From assembly GCA_964584895.1 (NCBI GenBank), contig CAZPAW010000002.1, positions 66,748-130,747 of the forward strand: 64,000 nucleotides of DNA, written 5' to 3'. Position 1 is the first letter of the stretch, and every line of letters begins with the position of its first letter. A model generated the notes under the pieces. The model made no database searches and was not told the DNA's origin. It worked only from the letters and a program-made list of their open reading frames with translations. The translations under genes and the position numbers were made by a program. Positions 184 to 43,638 of the stretch are shown piece after piece. The DNA is from an uncultured Candidatus Saccharibacteria bacterium (GTDB lineage Bacteria; Patescibacteriota; Saccharimonadia; Saccharimonadales; JAGQNJ01).

Positions 184-1145
184 TATATCTTGATTTATCA
201 AAACAACCAATTAATGAACCGATTCGGAAAGGTTTTGGCGAGGCATTGTTAGAGCTTGGCGAAAGCGATAAACATGTCGTGGCATTATGTGCGGATTTGG
301 CTGAATCAACCCAGATGCACTTGTTTGCTAATAAATTCCCTGAAAGGTTTGTAGAAATAGGTGTAGCAGAACAAAATTTAGTTACTGTTGGTTCCGGTAT
401 GGCATCTGCAGGAAAAATACCATTTGTTAGTAGTTATGCTGCGTTTAGTCCAGGTAGAAATTGGGAACAAATCAGAACTACAATTTGCTTGAATAACAGA
501 CCAGTGAAAATAATTGGGTCTCACGGCGGTCTATATACAGGGGCAGATGGCGCTACTCATCAAATGTTAGAAGACTATGCATTGATGAGAGTTCTCCCAA
601 ATATGGTTGTGTTGGCCCCAGGTGACTATATTGAAGCAAAAAAAGTTACGCTGGCTATGGCACAAGATCCAAGACCGAACTATATGAGAGTAACGCGAGA
701 GGCAACCCCTGTTTTTACAAACGAAAATACTCCATTTGTTATTGGAAAAGCCCAGATATTTTCTGCAGGTTCTGACGTTACAATAATATCGACAGGCGCG
801 ATGACCTATCAGGCATTAATGGCAACAGAAAAACTCTATAAATCCGGCATAGACGCTGAGCTTATTCATTCACCATCAATAAAACCATTAGATGCAGTAA
901 CAATATTATCAAGTGCTAAAAAGACAAAACACGTTATTACGGTAGAAGAACATCAAATTAATGGCGGGCTTGGTAGTGCAGTCTCAGAATTATTGTCAGA
1001 ACATTACCCTGTTCCGATAAAAAGAATGGGCGTAAAGGATAGGTTTGGAGAATCTGGTAAACCCAATGAATTACTTGAACACTATGGCCTAGACGAAAAA
1101 TCAATAATATTAACGGCTCATCATATGTTAAGCGAGGGTAAATAA
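180..1145 (+). CDS. Transketolase, C-terminal (pyrimidine-binding + C-terminal domain) subunit of a split transketolase
   Basis: 321-aa ORF with the transketolase Pyr-domain signature (FVEIGVAEQNLVTVGSGMA). Only the C-terminal half is encoded. The upstream gene is not the N-terminal half. Confidence 0.85.
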   Translation: MIYLDLSKQPINEPIRKGFGEALLELGESDKHVVALCADLAESTQMHLFANKFPERFVEIGVAEQNLVTVGSGMASAGKIPFVSSYAAFSPGRNWEQIRTTICLNNRPVKIIGSHGGLYTGADGATHQMLEDYALMRVLPNMVVLAPGDYIEAKKVTLAMAQDPRPNYMRVTREATPVFTNENTPFVIGKAQIFSAGSDVTIISTGAMTYQALMATEKLYKSGIDAELIHSPSIKPLDAVTILSSAKKTKHVITVEEHQINGGLGSAVSELLSEHYPVPIKRMGVKDRFGESGKPNELLEHYGLDEKSIILTAHHMLSEGK

Positions 1146-1147
1146 TC

Positions 1148-2059
1148 ATGGGCAGAAGTTTACAGCAAATTAGAACCGACTGTATTAAAGCTAGGGCATT
1201 GATGGAAAGATCGCGTCGGCAAAAATTCGCAGTCGGTGCTTTTAATATCGATAATCAAGAAACTCTAGTTGCAGTATGTAGAGCTGCTAAAGCAAAAAAT
1301 GCGCCAGTAATGGTTGAAGTTAGTAAAGCTGAAGTTGATGCACTTGGCTTAGATAACGTACGTGATTTGGTAGATAACTATAAAGAAGAATACGGGATAG
1401 AGATGTATATAAATCTCGATCACAGCCCTAGTGTCGATGATGCAATTGCAGGCATTGAAGCAGGCTTCGAATTTATTCACATTGATATATCTCAAGCGAA
1501 TAAAAAAGCATCGGAATCCGAGATAATTTCGAAGACAAAACGAGTTGTACAATTTGCTAAATCAACCGGTGCATTAGTTGAGAGTGAGCCCCATTATTTT
1601 GGTGGTGGATCGAATAAATTTGATTTTAAAATAAATTACGAAGAAATAAAAAAAACGTTCTCTACACCTGAAGGAGCAAAAGATTTTGTAGCTAAAACAG
1701 GTATCGATACATTTGCTGTTGCTATCGGTAACTTGCATGGTAAATACCCTGTTCCAAAAAAATTAGATTTAGTATTACTATCACAGATAAGAAAAGCTAT
1801 TGATTGCAACATTAGTCTGCATGGTGGCAGTGGAACACCAAGTCATTATTTTGAAGAAGCAGTTAAGATTGGTATCAGTAAGATTAATATTAATTCTGAT
1901 ATGAGGATTGCATATAGAGAAACTCTAGAAAAAGTATTAAAAAAAGATCCTGATGAATATGCGGTAGTAAAACTAATGGGAAAGGTTATTACAGAAGTAC
2001 AAAAAGTTGTTGAAAGTAAAATCGAATCATTTAATGCTAGCGGAAAGGCAAGACCGTAA
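1148..2059 (+). CDS. fba: Class II fructose-bisphosphate aldolase
   Basis: 303 aa. Class II aldolase family motifs are present (AFNIDNQE, LDHS, HIDIS, NLHG, LHGGSG). Confidence 0.85.
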   Translation: MGRSLQQIRTDCIKARALMERSRRQKFAVGAFNIDNQETLVAVCRAAKAKNAPVMVEVSKAEVDALGLDNVRDLVDNYKEEYGIEMYINLDHSPSVDDAIAGIEAGFEFIHIDISQANKKASESEIISKTKRVVQFAKSTGALVESEPHYFGGGSNKFDFKINYEEIKKTFSTPEGAKDFVAKTGIDTFAVAIGNLHGKYPVPKKLDLVLLSQIRKAIDCNISLHGGSGTPSHYFEEAVKIGISKININSDMRIAYRETLEKVLKKDPDEYAVVKLMGKVITEVQKVVESKIESFNASGKARP

Positions 2060-2060
2060 T

Positions 2061-3029
2061 ATGTCTGGCCGGCTTAAGGTTGTGTCTATCGGAGCAGCAA
2101 TACTCGATGTTTTCTTAAGAGGAAAGATTTTTGAGCCAATTAAAGAAAAAGACGGTAGCTTTACAGAAGAGTTCAAGCTGGGCACTAAGAACGAAGTCGA
2201 TGCAATAACCTATAGCACCGGCGGGGGCGCAACAAACGCAAGCGTCACATTTTCGCGACAGAATATTGCTAGTTACTTTATGGGAAAGATTGGTAACGAT
2301 ATTGCCGGTAAAGCCATCAGGGATGAATTACGTAAAGATAATGTTGATTGCAGTTTGATTCATATTAATGATCATGTTAGCACTGGCTATTCGACAATAT
2401 TACTATCACCAAACGGCGAACGAACGATTCTAACCTATAGGGGCGCCTCAAATGATTATCATTTTAAACGAAGTGATTTTTATAATATGGCGCCTGATTG
2501 GTTTTATGTGAGTTCTCTTTCAGGTGATATGAATTCGCTCGATGCTATCGTAAAATATGCAAATAATAATCAGATAAAAATCGCTATCAATCCTGGGTCT
2601 GGTGAAATAAGTCATAAAAGTTTTTTGCACTTATTAGACAATTTTACAATCTTAAGTTTGAATAAAGAGGAAATGCATCAACTTTTCGGGGCTGACTTAT
2701 CAATTAAGGAGTTGTTGATATTAGCCTCCAATAAAGTGCCGATAGTTTTGCTTACCGATGGCCCGAGAGGCTCTTATGTGTGCGATGGAGTTAGTATTTA
2801 TAAAGCGGGAACTTATGAAGATGTTCCTGTGATTGATAGAGCTGGCGCTGGAGATGCGTTCTCTAGTGGCTTTGTTGCAAAAATAATTAGTGGAGAATCG
2901 ATAGAAAAGGCTCTAACATTTGCAAGCGCTAACTCTACTAGCGTTGTGACAAAAATTGGGGCAAAAGAAGGAATATTACGCCATAATCATAAAATACATG
3001 ACATGAAAATTGAAATAAAAAGATTATAA
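2061..3029 (+). CDS. PfkB-family carbohydrate kinase (ribokinase-like)
   Basis: ATG 2061 lies directly after the fba stop. GGGATN and the DRAGAGDAF PfkB signature are present. The longer ORF from 2007 overlaps fba and is unlikely. Confidence 0.8.
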   Translation: MSGRLKVVSIGAAILDVFLRGKIFEPIKEKDGSFTEEFKLGTKNEVDAITYSTGGGATNASVTFSRQNIASYFMGKIGNDIAGKAIRDELRKDNVDCSLIHINDHVSTGYSTILLSPNGERTILTYRGASNDYHFKRSDFYNMAPDWFYVSSLSGDMNSLDAIVKYANNNQIKIAINPGSGEISHKSFLHLLDNFTILSLNKEEMHQLFGADLSIKELLILASNKVPIVLLTDGPRGSYVCDGVSIYKAGTYEDVPVIDRAGAGDAFSSGFVAKIISGESIEKALTFASANSTSVVTKIGAKEGILRHNHKIHDMKIEIKRL

Positions 3030-39287: not shown

Positions 39288-39817
39288 AAGTAATAGCTGG
39301 TTATTTAAAGGGTCGTGAAATAGATGCGTTAATTGGCAAAAGAACTCACCCTATGAGCGAAAAAGCGCGCGGAGGGTTGTTCAATGTGCTTGGCGACCTT
39401 AGTGGACTTGAAGTTTTAGATGCTTTTGCTGGTACTGGAGCACTTAGTATCGAAGCAATTAGTCGTGGAGCTAAGAAAATTATTTCTATTGATATTGATA
39501 AAAAAGCGAATAATGTCTTAAAACAAAATATTAAGTCATTACAAATAGAAGATAAAATTAAAGCAATTAACGCTAATGTAAGTGGATGGTCCGATAATAA
39601 TGTAGGAGCACAATTTGATATCGTAATATCTGCGCCTCCATACGATGGAATAAAATTACCAATCTTAAAGAAGTTAGTAAGCCACGTTAAATCAAATGGA
39701 TTATATATACTTGATTGGCCAGGGAAAATGGAAATACCACAATTCGATTCGTTATCAATCGTCACGAATAAAAATTATGGTGACGCACAACTAGTTTTTT
39801 ATAAAAAAACAGGGTAA
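39257..39817 (+). CDS. rsmD: 16S rRNA (guanine966-N2)-methyltransferase RsmD
   Basis: Motifs DAFAGTGALSIEAISRGA and SAPPYD. The true start may be GTG 39284, which forms a GTGA overlap with the upstream stop. Confidence 0.85.
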   Translation: MQAESTPSEVKVIAGYLKGREIDALIGKRTHPMSEKARGGLFNVLGDLSGLEVLDAFAGTGALSIEAISRGAKKIISIDIDKKANNVLKQNIKSLQIEDKIKAINANVSGWSDNNVGAQFDIVISAPPYDGIKLPILKKLVSHVKSNGLYILDWPGKMEIPQFDSLSIVTNKNYGDAQLVFYKKTG

Positions 39818-41464
39818 AATCGAACAGTTACCAAAAATTATCAATGGGGATGTGGTGGAATTGGTAGACACGCTAGTCTTAGGAACTAGTGCCGCAAGGC
39901 GTGTAGGTTCGAGTCCTATCATCCCCACCAAGAACGAACTTTTCGGGAAATTTGAGCGCATTTGCGCTCTTTTTTCTTTGGTTTTGCGGAGCAAAAACCA
40001 AATGTTTTCAGGGGGGAGAAAAGAATTTTGGGCAGCCGTAGGCTGCGCCTTTTTGGAATTCAAAAACAGGTTCAAACCGTCAATTTTGGCAAAAGCGTCC
40101 TTTATCGCCACAAAGTCGCCACTTTTTGCGATTTCACAGAGAGAAACGGCTTGTTTGAGCCACTGGCGCATAGGTTCAACCCAAGCTTTGCTGGCAAGCG
40201 TTAGCTTGCCGACTTGTTCCTCCAGCGACTTCTTTTCGCTCATTAGTTCGCCTTGTCTAGTGCGGTAGGTTTGCTGTTCAATATCTTGGTCTAAATAGCC
40301 GTCTAAAAGTCGCTGTAACTTGCCTTGCAAGTTCGCAAGTCGTGTTTGGGCATTAGCCACAAACACACTGGCAGACTGCTCGGCTTTGCGTTCGTCCTCG
40401 TCCAGCATTTTGCTCAAAGTCGTTGCCCAACTTTCGGGCAGGGCGTAGCCCTGCAATATGTCGGACAATTGCGCTGCTAAATCTTGCTCGGTAACTGGTG
40501 GCTCTTTGCAAGTAATAGTTTTGTGTTTTCTTGTACAACGGTAATAGATATATTCGTGCGTGTTGCCGTTTTTCTGGTGCTTTATCTTTTTCTCGGCGGT
40601 TATTGCCATATTACAAGTTGCACAAGTCAGCAAACCGCAAAACACCTGCGGCGCGGTTGCGCCTTTTTGAGGGTGGCAACGTTTGGCAATTACGGCTTGT
40701 ACTCGGTCAAATAGCCGTTTTTCAATTATTGCCTTGTGTTTGCCCTCGTACACCTCGCCGCAATAACGAAAATGTCCGAAGTAAAACGGGTTCGTTAGTA
40801 TGCGTTTTATCTGGTCTTTGGTCAGTTGTTTGCCGCTTTTGGTGGTAATGCCTCTGGACTTCATAAAAACGGCGACACTTTCAAGTGTTTGGTTGCCCTG
40901 TGTATATAACTCAAAAGCGGCTAAAATAACAGGCGCAAGCCGTTTGTTTACAATAACTGTTTTACTACGGACATCATTGATGTAGCCAATCGGGGCGTGG
41001 CTGGGGTACAACCCCAGCCGTACCTTTTGGCGCAAACCTCGCTTGGTGTTCTCGCTCAAATTGTCCACATAATACTTGGACTGCCCAAAAGCAATAGACA
41101 GCATAAATTTGCCTTGTGATGTGTTCTCAAACCAAAAAGACGGAAATTTGAGCGTGCCAATCTTGCCAGCGTCCAAAAGGTACACAATTTGCCCGCCGTC
41201 CACGCTATTGCGTGCAAGGCGATCAGGGTGCCACGCAAGTATATTGCCACCGTTCTTTTCAATTTCTGCCAGTAGTTTGCCAAAAATAGGGCGACCAGTT
41301 GTTTTTGCCGATTTCTTTTCTATAAACTCGGCGGCGATATACAAGCCTTCACGTTTGGCAAATTCTCGCAACTCCACGAGTTGCGCCTCAATAGACAAAA
41401 CCTGTTTGTCCTCAACATCTGTACTCTTGCGAGCATAGATGTAAAACTTTTGTATTGTTTCCAT
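39791..41464 (-). CDS. Large serine recombinase (integrase/invertase)
   Basis: The N-terminal resolvase domain has catalytic-Ser context YARKST and DRLARN. A recombinase domain, zinc ribbon (CGLLTCATCN...YYRCTRK) and coiled coil follow. RBS AAGGGGG. The ORF has no stop before IR-A or the att core. Its last 44 codons run antisense through tRNA-Leu to 39791, so the functional C-terminus is uncertain. Confidence 0.9.
   Translation of the reverse strand: METIQKFYIYARKSTDVEDKQVLSIEAQLVELREFAKREGLYIAAEFIEKKSAKTTGRPIFGKLLAEIEKNGGNILAWHPDRLARNSVDGGQIVYLLDAGKIGTLKFPSFWFENTSQGKFMLSIAFGQSKYYVDNLSENTKRGLRQKVRLGLYPSHAPIGYINDVRSKTVIVNKRLAPVILAAFELYTQGNQTLESVAVFMKSRGITTKSGKQLTKDQIKRILTNPFYFGHFRYCGEVYEGKHKAIIEKRLFDRVQAVIAKRCHPQKGATAPQVFCGLLTCATCNMAITAEKKIKHQKNGNTHEYIYYRCTRKHKTITCKEPPVTEQDLAAQLSDILQGYALPESWATTLSKMLDEDERKAEQSASVFVANAQTRLANLQGKLQRLLDGYLDQDIEQQTYRTRQGELMSEKKSLEEQVGKLTLASKAWVEPMRQWLKQAVSLCEIAKSGDFVAIKDAFAKIDGLNLFLNSKKAQPTAAQNSFLPPENIWFLLRKTKEKRAQMRSNFPKSSFLVGMIGLEPTRLAALVPKTSVSTNSTTSPLIIFGNCSILPCFFIKN
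39846..39930 (+). tRNA. tRNA-Leu (anticodon UAG), type II with long variable arm, CCA encoded
   Basis: Hand-folded. Acceptor GGGGATG/CATCCCC. D stem GTG/CAC. Anticodon stem CTAGT/ACTAG with loop CTTAGGA. Variable arm TGCCGCAAGGCGTG. T arm GTAGG-TTCGAGT-CCTAT. Discriminator A plus CCA. Confidence 0.93.
39925..40049 (+). repeat. IR-A left copy (125 bp)
   Basis: Reverse complement matches 41619-41743 at 123/125 positions (mismatches at 40026 and 40033). Starts with the last 6 nt of tRNA-Leu. Confidence 0.95.
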
Positions 41465-41586
41465 AGCTGTACCCCCTTGAACTCAAATAGCCGCCCTGTT
41501 GCACACAAATCAGGCAAGCCTAACTTGTACAGGACGGCTATTAAAGCCAAGCAAAAAGCCTGCCAAAATGATTTGTGTGCATTTGT

Positions 41587-41615
41587 ATTTTACCAAATAC
41601 CGCCAACTACGGCAA
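41587..41615 (-). promoter_or_regulatory. Candidate promoter of the recombinase gene
   Basis: On the minus strand: TTGCCG (41615-41610), 17-bp spacer, TAAAAT (41592-41587). The -35 box abuts the inner edge of IR-A right. Confidence 0.4.
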
Positions 41616-41618
41616 AAC

Positions 41619-41743
41619 GGCGCAGCCTACGGCTACCCAAAGTTCTTTTCTCCCCCCTGAAAACATTTGGTTTTTGCTCCGCAAAACCAAAGAAAAAAGA
41701 GCGCAAATGCGCTCAAATTTCCCGAAAAGTTCGTTCTTGGTGG
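41619..41743 (-). repeat. IR-A right copy (125 bp)
   Basis: Inverted copy of 39925-40049. Overlaps IR-B left by the 7-bp core ttggtgg (41737-41743). Confidence 0.95.
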
Positions 41744-41911
41744 AATTTTACAACTCCGCTAGAACCTATTTTGAGGAAAAGTGCTGAAAACTGCAAGGCG
41801 GCGGGCAACGCCCGCTCCGCCAGAAAAACAATTCTTTGCATTTTTTGAATTTTACCCCCGCCGAATTTCTTTTTTTGAATTTGGAAAAGAATTGTTTTTC
41901 TGGACGGTGCG
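41737..41911 (+). repeat. IR-B left copy (175 bp)
   Basis: A perfect reverse complement of 43102-43276, checked base by base. Contains an internal 18-bp-arm hairpin (41820-41837 / 41886-41903) and a GC hairpin GCGGGC-AAC-GCCCGC (41801-41815). Confidence 0.95.
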
Positions 41912-41928
41912 AACAGCGTAACTAGGCT

Positions 41929-43065
41929 TTAAGAAGAGTAGCTTCTATCGATACGGTCAGACAACGAGGTAACAACCTCATAATTTATAGTTTCGTATGC
42001 GCTCGCTATGTCGTCAGCTGTAATCGATAGCGAACCTTGTTCCCCCATTAGAATAACCTCATTACCGACGACAACTGAGCCGTCGATATCAGTAATATCA
42101 ATTACTGTTTGATCCATTGCTACGCTGCCGACTATCGGAGCAAATTGTCCATTTATCAAAACTTTGGTGGCATTGTGTGGCGTACGGCGGTAGCCATCGC
42201 CATACCCGACTGGTAGTAGTGCAATGGTGCTTTGTTTTTCGGCTTTCCAGCGCCGGTTGTAACCCACCGTTTCTCCTGGCTCAATAGTTCTCACAAAAAT
42301 TACTTGCGTTTTAAATGATAGGACGGGCTTGAACTCTTTAGCAACAAATTCGTATTTCTGGTGTTCCTCTGGGAAAGGATTGAGCCCATATGTTATCAGG
42401 CCCGGCCGAACCATCGTAAAGTGCGCTTCTGGAAAATTGATAATTGCGGCACTATTAGCACAGTGTATCAACGGAGGGTTGATTCCTTCATTTTGCAGCA
42501 TATTAAGCGAATCGTTGAATACCTTTAGCTGTTGGTGCGTAAACGCAACATCTAATGCTTCTGACTCAGCAAAATGCGTAAATAAGCCCTCTAGTTCCAT
42601 GTGTGATGAGTGCTGTATGGCTTGAGCAAGAGCAAGTAACTTATCGGGGTCGCAACCTGCCCTATGCATGCCTGTATCAATCTTAATATGAACCTTGGCT
42701 TTCTTTCCTTGAGTACTGGCGGCTCCCTCGATAGCAGATAGTATCTTTTCGTCCATGACTGTGATAGATGCATCAAGCTGGATTGCTTCCATAACTGAAG
42801 CTTTATCGAGGTAATTAAGTAACAAAATTGGTGCACGAACACCTGCGCTACGGACTTTTTTAAGTTCACCCAAGCTAACAACGCCTATATAGGTTGCTCC
42901 AGCTTCAATGGCTTTCTTAGCCGTCTCTTCAATACCATGTCCATAGGCGTTAGCTTTCACAACAGCCATCACTCTTGTATCATTTGATACAATTTCCAGT
43001 ATCTTTGAGATATTATGAGCATAATTTCCAAGGTTTATATCTGCTACAGTTAGTCGGTTTGGCAT
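41929..43065 (-). CDS. alr: Alanine racemase
   Basis: 378 aa. PLP-lysine motif AVVKANAYGHG and a C-terminal beta domain. TATAAT (43078-43073, minus strand) lies 7 nt upstream of the ATG. Confidence 0.93.
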   Translation of the reverse strand: MPNRLTVADINLGNYAHNISKILEIVSNDTRVMAVVKANAYGHGIEETAKKAIEAGATYIGVVSLGELKKVRSAGVRAPILLLNYLDKASVMEAIQLDASITVMDEKILSAIEGAASTQGKKAKVHIKIDTGMHRAGCDPDKLLALAQAIQHSSHMELEGLFTHFAESEALDVAFTHQQLKVFNDSLNMLQNEGINPPLIHCANSAAIINFPEAHFTMVRPGLITYGLNPFPEEHQKYEFVAKEFKPVLSFKTQVIFVRTIEPGETVGYNRRWKAEKQSTIALLPVGYGDGYRRTPHNATKVLINGQFAPIVGSVAMDQTVIDITDIDGSVVVGNEVILMGEQGSLSITADDIASAYETINYEVVTSLSDRIDRSYSS

Positions 43066-43101
43066 ACTTACGATTATAGCCTAAATGTCGCCTGTGGCGA
43101 C

Positions 43102-43276
43102 CGCACCGTCCAGAAAAACAATTCTTTTCCAAATTCAAAAAAAGAAATTCGGCGGGGGTAAAATTCAAAAAATGCAAAGAATTGTTTTTCTGGCGGAGCG
43201 GGCGTTGCCCGCCGCCTTGCAGTTTTCAGCACTTTTCCTCAAAATAGGTTCTAGCGGAGTTGTAAAATTCCACCAA
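43102..43276 (-). repeat. IR-B right copy (175 bp)
   Basis: A perfect inverted copy of 41737-41911. Ends with CCACCAA (43270-43276). Confidence 0.95.
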
Positions 43277-43428
43277 TGAAACAAGATCGTCATCTGACGG
43301 TCTTTTTTCATTTTCGAGTGTTGAAAGACTCGAACCCTGGTCGAAAATCGCCTGTGGCTGTTTTCGTTTTACTTGCTTGTTGCTATGCGCAATGACTTCA
43401 GTCATTTTACCGCTAGCAGAAGATGAAG

Positions 43429-43446
43429 GAGCCCTATCATCCCCAC
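43429..43446 (+). pseudogene. Remnant of a tRNA-Leu 3' end
   Basis: gagCcctatcatccccac matches tRNA-Leu 39911-39928 (gagTcctatcatccccac) at 17/18 positions, in the same orientation, 153 bp beyond the element edge. Confidence 0.6.
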
Positions 43447-43638
43447 TAACAAAGATATCGCCCATAGTGGCGATTCTTTAATTAGTCTAGGGATGGCAGA
43501 TTTGAACTTCACCCCAAGAGTAAAGGCGAGAATAGCTCGACGACTATCCGAACGTAAAACTTCTAAATTCAAATTCTTTTTACGTATAAAAACGATAAGA
43601 GCTCTATTAATTGTAAAAGTGATAAACTATTAAGTATT

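Follow-up and report, generated by a model that had tools for sequence, protein, structure and literature searches.

The stretch of DNA analysed here (the window) comprises 64,000 nucleotides of contig CAZPAW010000002.1 from an uncultured Candidatus Saccharibacteria bacterium, and the locus of interest is an alanine racemase gene, alr, which lies together with a large serine recombinase (LSR) gene in an element of 3,345 bp (39925–43276) at the CCA end of a tRNA-Leu(tag) gene, where alr fills the cargo slot (Table 1). The alr open reading frame (ORF) is intact, and its 378-residue product is full-length with respect to the Pfam families Ala_racemase_N (6.9e-71) and Ala_racemase_C (2.7e-43). The gene is enclosed by an inverted repeat, IR-B, whose two arms as located by a repeat finder are each 175 nt long, 100% complementary and separated by 1190 nt, leaving unique flanks of 17 nt (41912–41928) and 36 nt (43066–43101) between alr and the arms. 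A promoter scan places a promoter-like site that matches the consensus at 10 of 12 positions within the longer flank, and its TATAAT (43078–43073) ends 7 nt ahead of the ATG. An earlier note on this DNA, made from the sequence without database searches, had described the repeat-bracketed gene, its unique flanks and the TATAAT 7 nt before the ATG, and each of these lies where it was reported. The same note had proposed that alr carries its own leaderless-type promoter within the unique 36 nt, and this is borne out both by the promoter scan and by the most closely related alr locus (L004, described below), which keeps the arrangement TATAAT-CGTAAGT-ATG unchanged. The earlier note registered the neighbouring recombinase as well, and did not mention the second inverted repeat, its 7-nt overlap with IR-B or the ends of the element.

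This second inverted repeat, IR-A, flanks the LSR gene with arms of 131 nt that are 98% complementary according to the repeat finder. With its right arm, IR-A overlaps the left arm of IR-B in a 7-nt core, TTGGTGG, which recurs as CCACCAA at the start of the left IR-A arm and at the end of the right IR-B arm, giving three copies altogether, of which the leftmost overlaps the CCA end of the tRNA-Leu gene. The recombinase contains the three domains PF00239 Resolvase (4e-21), PF07508 Recombinase (1.4e-15) and PF13408 Zn_ribbon_recom (4e-07), each above its gathering score, and its N-terminus carries the motif YARKST with the expected serine. The protein of 557 residues called in the window has no exact counterpart on record, and a sequence search of the PDB returned only distant matches to the catalytic domain (best E 1.8e-05). 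Rfam models identify only the tRNA at the locus, the matches of microRNA families to the arm hairpins being far below threshold. The GC content of the LSR gene (0.44–0.50) is higher than that of the flanks on the rsmD side (0.30–0.40), and that of alr (0.39–0.48) overlaps the range of hisS (0.41–0.45), so that alr is not marked as foreign by its composition.

Perfect repeats that exceed the read length are a classic source of misassembly, and the earlier note itself had named a duplicated assembly repeat as an outcome that would undo its proposal. Independent Logan contigs argue otherwise. One of them (L001, 1250 nt, present in 3 samples) equals window positions 41882–43131 with 0 mismatches, and its two 30-nt ends are mutually reverse-complementary, in keeping with a k=31 graph having broken at an inverted repeat; hisS contigs of two further samples likewise begin exactly 30 nt inside the outer arm of IR-B. 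Dozens of assemblies produced by different groups show this layout too, one of them (L017, CP064994.1) being filed under the title 'chromosome, complete genome'. IR-B is real in the raw data and no assembly artefact, and the probability that the repeats reflect misassembly or a collapsed repeat is negligible.

Relatives of the LSR form at least 120 database clusters at 68–95% identity, and one scan of species-representative genomes yielded 80 LSR loci, mostly in metagenome-assembled genomes (MAGs) of Saccharibacteria and other Patescibacteria. In all 66 loci in which a convergent tRNA gene lies downstream, the element abuts the tRNA 3' end, with the junction always falling between ...tt and TGG..., and the distance from the LSR match to the tRNA 3' end is 64–167 nt, mostly 110–122 nt. 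The tRNAs concerned are those for Leu, Arg, Met, Val, Ser, Gln, Asn, Tyr, Gly, Lys, Thr, Ile, Ala and Glu, with many anticodons. Two LSRs can be 89–96% identical and yet occupy different tRNAs, and in several MAGs two or three copies are present. The family is accordingly mobile, with the ends of tRNA genes as its target.

The two-repeat layout is shared throughout this family. Self-comparison of each locus detects IR-A around the LSR in 52 loci (median length 135 nt, median identity 100%), and of the 42 loci whose upstream sequence extends to 1.5 kb or more, 36 have IR-B (median length 175 nt, median identity 100%), where it encloses 0.9–4.6 kb; the IR-A and IR-B arms overlap by 4–12 nt. The layout persists as LSR identity falls from 96% to 45%, and the arms are near-perfect within one element and 68–96% identical between elements. 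Its hosts include MAGs labelled Saccharibacteria, Woesebacteria, Levyibacteriota and Gottesmanbacteria. When the window is aligned with elements at other tRNAs, homology stops at the tRNA and at 43276–43284 in most cases (two alignments run somewhat further), and the element is delimited as 39925–43276 because homology to elements elsewhere ends at both points. The arrangement common to the family can be written as host flank X, core, b – cargo – b', core', a – LSR – a*, core, tRNA, where a and a* denote the arms of IR-A and b and b' those of IR-B.

The cargo is variable and mostly unrelated from one element to the next. It includes enzymes (a methyltransferase, an HD hydrolase, several NUDIX proteins, HIT, HAD, a GDSL lipase, a peptidase S51 and a 2'-5' RNA ligase), redox genes (Zn-dehydrogenases, Ldh_2, and an FAD oxidase with a pyridine-nucleotide oxidoreductase) and, further, queuosine salvage, an APH-type kinase, an MFS transporter, PadR, TetR and AraC regulators and a Panacea antitoxin. 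About half of the elements have a motif of the form TAnnnT-N5-9-(A/G)TG no more than 90 nt from an arm; these motifs are cleanest in approximately 12 elements. The precise bracketing that had been regarded as a peculiarity of alr is thus the fixed layout of a large element family, with a slot that accepts many unrelated genes. A Replic_Relax (replication-relaxation) protein is part of the cargo in L043 (2969–3832), and a DDE (rve) transposase in the cargo of L080 (1376–2431) indicates that insertion sequences can nest there.

A conserved block, (C)TGCC(A/G)TAAA(T/C)GGCAGAGGCGG(C/T)GTGGC..., containing two hairpins, occupies the first ∼50 nt inside only one of the IR-B arms in L022, L024, L025, L041, L048, L038, L016, L020 and others; the cargo gene may point either way with respect to it. 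Two elements stand in tandem at a single tRNA-Leu(cag) gene in L013 (3648–10882), the a* arm of the outer one being joined through a core to arm b of the inner one, which implies recombination of an attP with a site that was already occupied. LSR contigs are also filed in MAGs of Spartobacteria, Gammaproteobacteria, Acinetobacter and Clostridia (L011, L026, L027, L051, L068 and L088); most are short, and mis-binning of Patescibacteria repeats is a likelier cause than true occurrence in these hosts. IMG/VR contains no relatives of the LSR, and there is no sign of a phage origin. No description of this element family was found within the literature searched.

A three-site alignment in the orientation of the LSR assigns the three cores to the attachment sites of an integrated element. 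Site S1 (a*-core-tRNA) corresponds to attL, site S3 (X-core-b) to attR, and the reverse complement of site S2 (a*-core-b) to a complete attP that is inverted in the chromosome; S2 is also complete in all 17 loci in which no outer IR-B arm was detected. Flank X is variable and has terminator-like hairpins in many loci, consistent with the native flank of a tRNA gene. Arm b resembles the 3' part of a tRNA, with the sequence T(C/A)GAACC located at +23 from TGG in 40 of 42 elements and at +19 in real tRNAs. According to the LSR model of Rutherford et al. (PMC3783163), the motif of the zinc-ribbon domain is closer to the centre in attB, by 5 bp, than it is in attP. The 4-nt offset found here agrees with b being a half-site of the attP type and the tRNA one of the attB type; it is confined to the tRNA-side half-site, and the other half-sites are mutually unlike. 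An arrangement in which attL mimics attP and attR mimics attB, such that excision would equal integration, was considered and dropped, since the displacement of 4 nt between the tRNA and arm b is constant.

The sequence of the core changes from target to target (TGGTG, TGGTA, TGGCT, TGGCG, TGGAG), and since some elements share TGGT alone with their target, the crossover is placed at the CCA/discriminator end of the tRNA gene. Aligned in this way, IR-A and IR-B are together one inverted duplicate of ∼300 bp comprising attP and the 3' end region of the LSR gene, and because integration cuts the outer copy at the core, one half of the duplicate brackets the LSR and the other half brackets the cargo slot.

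Table 1. Features of the alr-bearing element and of its insertion site, in window coordinates.
Feature	Position	Strand	Basis and remarks
LSR ORF in the integrated state, 557 aa	39791–41464	−	Pfam; 72% identity to the LSR of L004
tRNA-Leu(tag), integration target	39846–39930	+	ARAGORN; Rfam tRNA 60.5 bits; CCA end represents the right half of attB, now in attL
Core copy 1, CCACCAA, tRNA/element junction; S1, attL	39925–39931	+	Repeats, three-site alignment
IR-A arm a*	39925–40055		Last ∼40 LSR codons before the core; left attP half; terminator hairpins facing tRNA transcription
Candidate LSR promoter TTGCCG-17-TAAAAT, extended TG	41587–41615	−	Consensus scan only
IR-A arm a, inverted copy of the LSR 3' coding end, upstream of the LSR	41613–41743		Terminator faces transcription leaving alr
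Spare LSR 3' end, ...SSFLV EFYNSARTYFEEKC, TGA at 41785–41787	41613–41787	+	Plus-strand ORF 41575–41787
Core copy 2, TTGGTGG (inverted), centre of S2, complete inverted attP	41737–41743	+	Repeats, three-site alignment
IR-B inner arm b'	41737–41911		Pseudo-tRNA 3' half (TAGAACC 41760–41766), LSR tail and stop, GC stem-loop, 18-bp hairpin
alr, cargo gene	41929–43065	−	ORF list, Pfam, homologues
alr promoter TCGCCA-16-TATAAT, leaderless type	43073–43100	−	Consensus scan; kept in L004
IR-B outer arm b, far end of the element	43102–43276		Repeat finder; homology ends at 43276–43284 in most related loci
Core copy 3, CCACCAA; S3, attR	43270–43276	+	Three-site alignment
Displaced native tRNA-Leu terminator, start of host flank X	43283–43304	+	Terminator scan

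The LSR gene extends across its own attachment site. In none of the 66 loci does the ORF stop before the junction; it ends 20–287 nt into tRNA-antisense or flanking DNA, and the called LSR proteins range from 462 to 650 residues because the ORF runs past the junction into the tRNA. Automatic annotation of this family consequently yields inflated and variable protein lengths. In the window the LSR is encoded by the element down to position 39932, and its last 45 codons are antisense tRNA and rsmD flank; the ORF as called overlaps all of tRNA-Leu and the end of rsmD on the opposite strand (39791–39931). In the attP configuration (a*-core-b), by contrast to the integrated state, the ORF stops 47 nt past the junction in 40 distinct elements and ends with a native tail of 16 residues, L-V/A-x-[FLI]-Y-[ND]-x-A-R-T-[YH]-F-x-x-[KN]-x, which reads ...LVEFYNSARTYFEEKC in the window. 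The stop codon is TGA, TAG or TAA among elements, the Arg codon is AGA or CGA, and third codon positions vary; the tail is taken to be the translated, true end of the gene because the position of the first in-frame stop is kept while the stop codon itself changes. Judged from these junctions, integration exchanges the conserved tail of 16 codons for a tRNA-antisense sequence of variable length, and the inverted site S2 retains an intact spare of the last ∼57 LSR codons on the opposite strand.

Upstream of the LSR, the candidate promoter sits just inside arm a, and L004 has TGGTATAAT at the equivalent place. The 5' leader of the gene (41480–41570, minus strand) contains a long hairpin, AATAGCCGTCCTG...CAGGGCGGCTATT, which could be a regulatory RNA structure; L004 (9400–9480) keeps this hairpin with compensating changes, CGTCTCGG/CCGAGGCG, and the structure has no Rfam match. 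On the other side of the element, a copy of the tRNA-Leu 3' end (27 nt, 85%; GAGCCCTATCATCCCCACTAACAAAGA) at 43429–43455 is followed by its own hairpin ATCGCCCATAGTGGCGAT (region 43429–43474). This copy lies 153 nt past the element end and may be left over from an earlier insertion at tRNA-Leu. As a candidate for the end of the present element it was rejected, as homology to other elements stops at ∼43276–43284.

The alr gene closest to that of the window (84% identical) is located on an 864-kb JGI contig, L004, and is followed there by an LSR that is 72% identical to the window LSR and whose ORF runs into a convergent tRNA-Arg(cct) gene, in a neighbourhood unrelated to the window. The recurrence of alr beside an LSR, at a different tRNA, agrees with the view of the earlier note that the racemase gene is cargo of a recombinase element. 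The repeats of L004 are decayed (IR-A 79%, IR-B absent, tail degenerate), which suggests that this copy is fixed. The next relative (72%, L006) is part of a ddl-alr-murF arrangement that has no recombinase, and an alr gene at 67% identity lies 139 nt from a convergent tRNA-Glu gene. In L169 (998–2322 and 4453–5992) an alr gene (70%) is preceded by a remnant of arm b and has a tRNA-Leu(cag) gene nearby, without an LSR; the same contig holds a 291-residue gene between b-like inverted arms (77%) directly beside a tRNA-Leu(tag) gene, again without a recombinase. Both L169 loci look like recombinase-less remains of such elements. Judging from these settings, alr has relocated repeatedly within the clade.

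The earlier note had also suggested capture of a host gene. This is plausible, as the closest relatives of alr, taken over the best 120 matches, all belong to Saccharibacteria or other Patescibacteria, and alr was probably captured from a Saccharibacteria genome. It had further reasoned that an IR-B-flanked alr in relatives devoid of a recombinase would point to a fixed, non-mobile feature; no such case was encountered, and the relatives that do bear the recombinase hold other cargo. None of the 80 LSR loci in the representative-genome scan carries alr, so that element-borne alr is found in the window and L004 only, and a scan of metagenome contigs with the alr protein gave generic racemases of at most 41% identity among the matches listed and no new alr-bearing elements. 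The earlier note had considered that alr might act as an anti-loss, addiction-like device if it were the sole copy in the genome. The 64-kb window contains no second alr, no ddl and no murF. On the L004 contig no further alr was recognised among the best 120 alr matches, which is weak evidence, and a search with the ddl protein of L006 gave no match on that contig among the best 120, ddl being too conserved for such a search.

Both IR-A arms contain GAGCGCATTTGCGCTC followed by T6, recognised by the terminator scan as intrinsic terminators. The copy at 39954–39969 (+) faces transcription of the tRNA, immediately after which it stands in for the displaced native terminator, and the copy at 41714–41699 (−) faces transcription leaving alr, indicating that the LSR is likely insulated from both sides. 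In the IR-B arm, the 18-nt-arm hairpin and the GCGGGC-AAC-GCCCGC stem-loop are both seen and dominate the predicted fold, the z-score of which is only −1.9 relative to shuffled sequence, and the U-run past the GC stem is weak. The stems of the arm hairpins differ between the window and L004 with compensating changes. The proposal that the IR-B arms serve as terminators or insulators is supported as regards structured, insulator-like DNA, the clear intrinsic terminators being those of IR-A and IR-B having only a weak one. These same features, namely terminators that meet incoming transcription, the IR-B hairpin with its GC stem and the compensated stems, would also suit a role of the repeats as transcription insulators only, kept identical by host gene conversion and enclosing an internal attP that plays no part in recombination. 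Such a role, however, requires neither 100% identity over 130–290 nt nor an exact core with both half-sites and a conserved ORF tail and stop in the inner copy, and it does not account for the varying orientation of the segments between elements. Insulation as the sole function is considered unlikely, and the repeats are not generic insulators, being the halves of an inverted copy of the attachment site and of the 3' end of the LSR gene.

Comparison among elements indicates that the segments between the arms differ in orientation. The methyltransferase cargo of L009 and L015 is ∼90% identical to that of L014 over 690 nt, including a TGTGATATAAT-N7-ATG promoter and the junction with the arm, and it faces the inner arm in the former two and the outer arm in the latter, with the opposite junction swapped as well. 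A cargo gene encoding 396–401 residues is likewise oppositely oriented in L039 and L047, and over all elements the orientation of cargo relative to the LSR is about half and half. The LSR itself points toward the tRNA in 64 of 66 loci and is flipped in L028 and L035. In these two (L028, 5646–7500; L035, 5639–7483) it is arm a, with the LSR 5' side, that adjoins the tRNA 3' end, and the contigs end inside the other arm; the flip in L035 is not an ambiguity of the assembly graph, because its arms differ at 2 of 79 positions. As follows from the sequence, a flip between the IR-A arms would join the body of the LSR to the spare tail and restore a full-length gene.

The presence of inverted repeats around a gene beside a serine recombinase, together with the variation of cargo orientation among related elements, could also be taken to mean that the repeats form an on/off phase switch, in which the recombinase acts as an invertase and flips alr relative to an outside promoter. 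The −35 and −10 elements and the ATG of alr, however, all lie within the unique segment and would move with the gene, and L004 keeps the same promoter although it has no IR-B. The arms are identical, so the surroundings of the gene are the same for 175 nt in either orientation; the enzyme is a large serine recombinase and not an invertase of the Hin/Gin type; and an inserted element ends with the outer arm. A phase switch is for these reasons highly improbable.

The explanation favoured here, to which a probability of roughly 0.7 is assigned, is that alr is the cargo of an LSR-driven integrative element at tRNA-Leu(tag) that belongs to a large family in Patescibacteria, has retained an inverted attP, and is capable of excision and inversion. 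The element would excise and re-integrate by recombination at the cores. The cargo would flip between the IR-B arms, an event that should leave alr unaffected, because the gene has a leaderless promoter of its own and lies between two terminator-like hairpins. A flip between the IR-A arms would use the spare 3' end to restore a recombinase of full length, constituting a rare, stochastic switch from a locked to an active state. A more tentative proposal, regarded as possible rather than probable, is that the repeat pairs amount to a control device for an integrase that has no helper, such that integration removes the tail and locks the element in place, a rare IR-A flip re-arms the enzyme for excision or for further recombination at other tRNA genes, and IR-B makes the slot orientation-free and exchangeable between elements.

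Recombination of S1 with S3 would geometrically release a circle with two inverted attP regions, and the repeats might accordingly serve such a free form, resembling the 2-micron plasmid, or a single-stranded dumbbell, in isomerisation, amplification or the circularisation of incoming single-stranded DNA, instead of acting as a switch in the integrated state. The contig L175 (ENA k141_239101, 473–3023), on which b'-core'-a is followed by a 109-residue ORF and an LSR with the native tail (a*-core-b contiguous) and which has no tRNA, would suit this explanation, as would the position of the three IR-A mismatches in the window, all at the end furthest from the core. The contig may represent a circle after excision or belong to a tandem array. 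No replication gene, however, is conserved in the family, Replic_Relax occurring in L043 only; no circular contig was found, and no relatives in IMG/VR; and equal use of the two attP regions predicts that half of the LSRs face away from the tRNA, where 2 of 66 do. The probability of this alternative is accordingly very small. In its single-stranded variant, direct recombination of a dumbbell with the chromosome was dropped as a candidate, as it yields, on paper, chromosome ends capped by hairpins. LSR proteins with the native tail, once considered as proof of excised circles, were likewise dropped in that capacity, since short contigs can be chimeric through the repeat.

Several observations weigh against the favoured explanation of a mobile, inverting element or against the switch proposed for it. 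The evidence for inversion is comparative, consisting of different species and of two contigs that end inside an arm, and short-read assemblies can fail to settle the orientation of a segment whose arms exceed the read length, that of alr in the window included. In L004, which has no IR-B, alr points in the same direction as the LSR, and so it does in the window. For the species of the window, exact look-ups with hisS and rsmD recovered neither an empty tRNA-Leu site nor a circular junction: hisS contigs all begin inside the outer arm, and rsmD contigs all stop before or inside the tRNA. The case for mobility of the window copy is thus drawn from its relatives. Neither a recombination directionality factor nor a conserved third gene is evident in the family, the cargo being variable, and an LSR of the canonical kind needs help to recombine attL with attR. 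Without any switch function, near-perfect repeats could be maintained by host gene conversion alone. The conservation of the LSR tail is partly confounded by the constraint on arm b as a DNA site, and proteins with the native tail occur in 4 of 40 clusters, on short metagenome contigs that may be chimeras of the assembly graph. Finally, the a arms of L175 are mosaic, with the core-proximal ∼70 nt derived from different lineages.

In its three LSR domains, its specific site at the tRNA 3' end with a core of 4–12 nt, and its offset between half-sites, the element agrees with an LSR integrative element. It resembles known examples (phages A118/LI, Bxb1 and phiC31, and TnpX/TndX of Tn4451/Tn5397) in the three domains, the short core and the minimal combination of recombinase and cargo, and also in the shared motif, whose distance from the centre is smaller in the host site than in that of the element (PMC3783163). 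It differs from them in that the present family targets the CCA end of many tRNA genes, has its attP inside the recombinase ORF, keeps a full inverted attP with long near-perfect inverted repeats, and shows no evident directionality factor; the window LSR is, in addition, only distantly similar to LSRs of solved structure.

Integrases of SSV1-type fuselloviruses of Sulfolobus have attP inside the int gene, so that the free and integrated forms encode different proteins. The present LSR is similar to these in that integration cuts the integrase ORF at its own attachment site, but they are tyrosine enzymes of archaeal viruses whose gene is split near the middle, whereas the LSR is a serine enzyme that exchanges its last 16 codons and carries a spare inverted 3' end. 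Tycheposons of Prochlorococcus are reportedly tRNA-targeting islands with tyrosine integrases. Like the present family, they are small cargo-shuttling islands at tRNA genes of streamlined genomes with variable metabolic cargo; unlike it, they employ another recombinase family and duplicate a 3' stretch of the tRNA as direct repeats, whereas here the crossover is at the CCA end, 4–12 nt are shared and the arms are inverted. Pfam models detect no tyrosine integrase in the element, which sets it apart from tyrosine-integrase tRNA islands in general.

The predicted circle, with two inverted copies of ∼300 bp that each contain a recombination site and with the recombinase encoded on one of the segments, recalls the yeast 2-micron plasmid, which differs in that the circle considered here is only a prediction, has no replication functions and would be acted on by a serine enzyme and not by FLP, a tyrosine recombinase, and in that the element is integrated. 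Invertons (Hin, Gin, PinQ) share with it the inverted repeats that flank a segment beside a serine recombinase and perhaps the variable orientation, which is seen here between related elements of different species; their repeats measure ∼26 bp in contrast to arms of 130–290 nt in the family (131–175 nt in the window), and here the recombinase belongs to the large type, the cargo takes its promoter along (that of alr being inside the segment) and the outer arms are the ends of the element. A composite transposon or insertion sequence is contradicted by the lack of a transposase and by the outer ends a* and b, which are unrelated to each other and each pair with an internal copy, and an integron cassette by the serine recombinase and by the 175-nt repeats on both sides of the gene. 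We know of no described LSR element with this layout. As far as could be found, serine integrases have not been described with an attP within their own gene, with a pseudo-tRNA as half-site or with an inverted attP that is retained.

Patescibacteria have tiny genomes, and their routes of gene exchange are poorly documented. The family described here is apparently a common minimal vehicle by which metabolic or housekeeping genes, singly or a few at a time, pass from one tRNA site to another in these organisms, and the case of alr indicates that even a core cell-wall gene can travel on such an element. Its perfect repeats of 130–290 nt break short-read assemblies, and many contigs end in them. 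Since these LSRs target a conserved end of tRNA genes, they could serve the engineering of Patescibacteria or be used as integrase tools. The layout raises the question of whether an integrase could set its own direction in the absence of a helper protein. If the mechanism outlined above is correct, it would represent a new form of directionality control, in which the reaction rewrites the reading frame of the recombinase itself, and the family would constitute a new class of gene shuttle that carries single housekeeping genes, even alr, among ultra-small bacteria.

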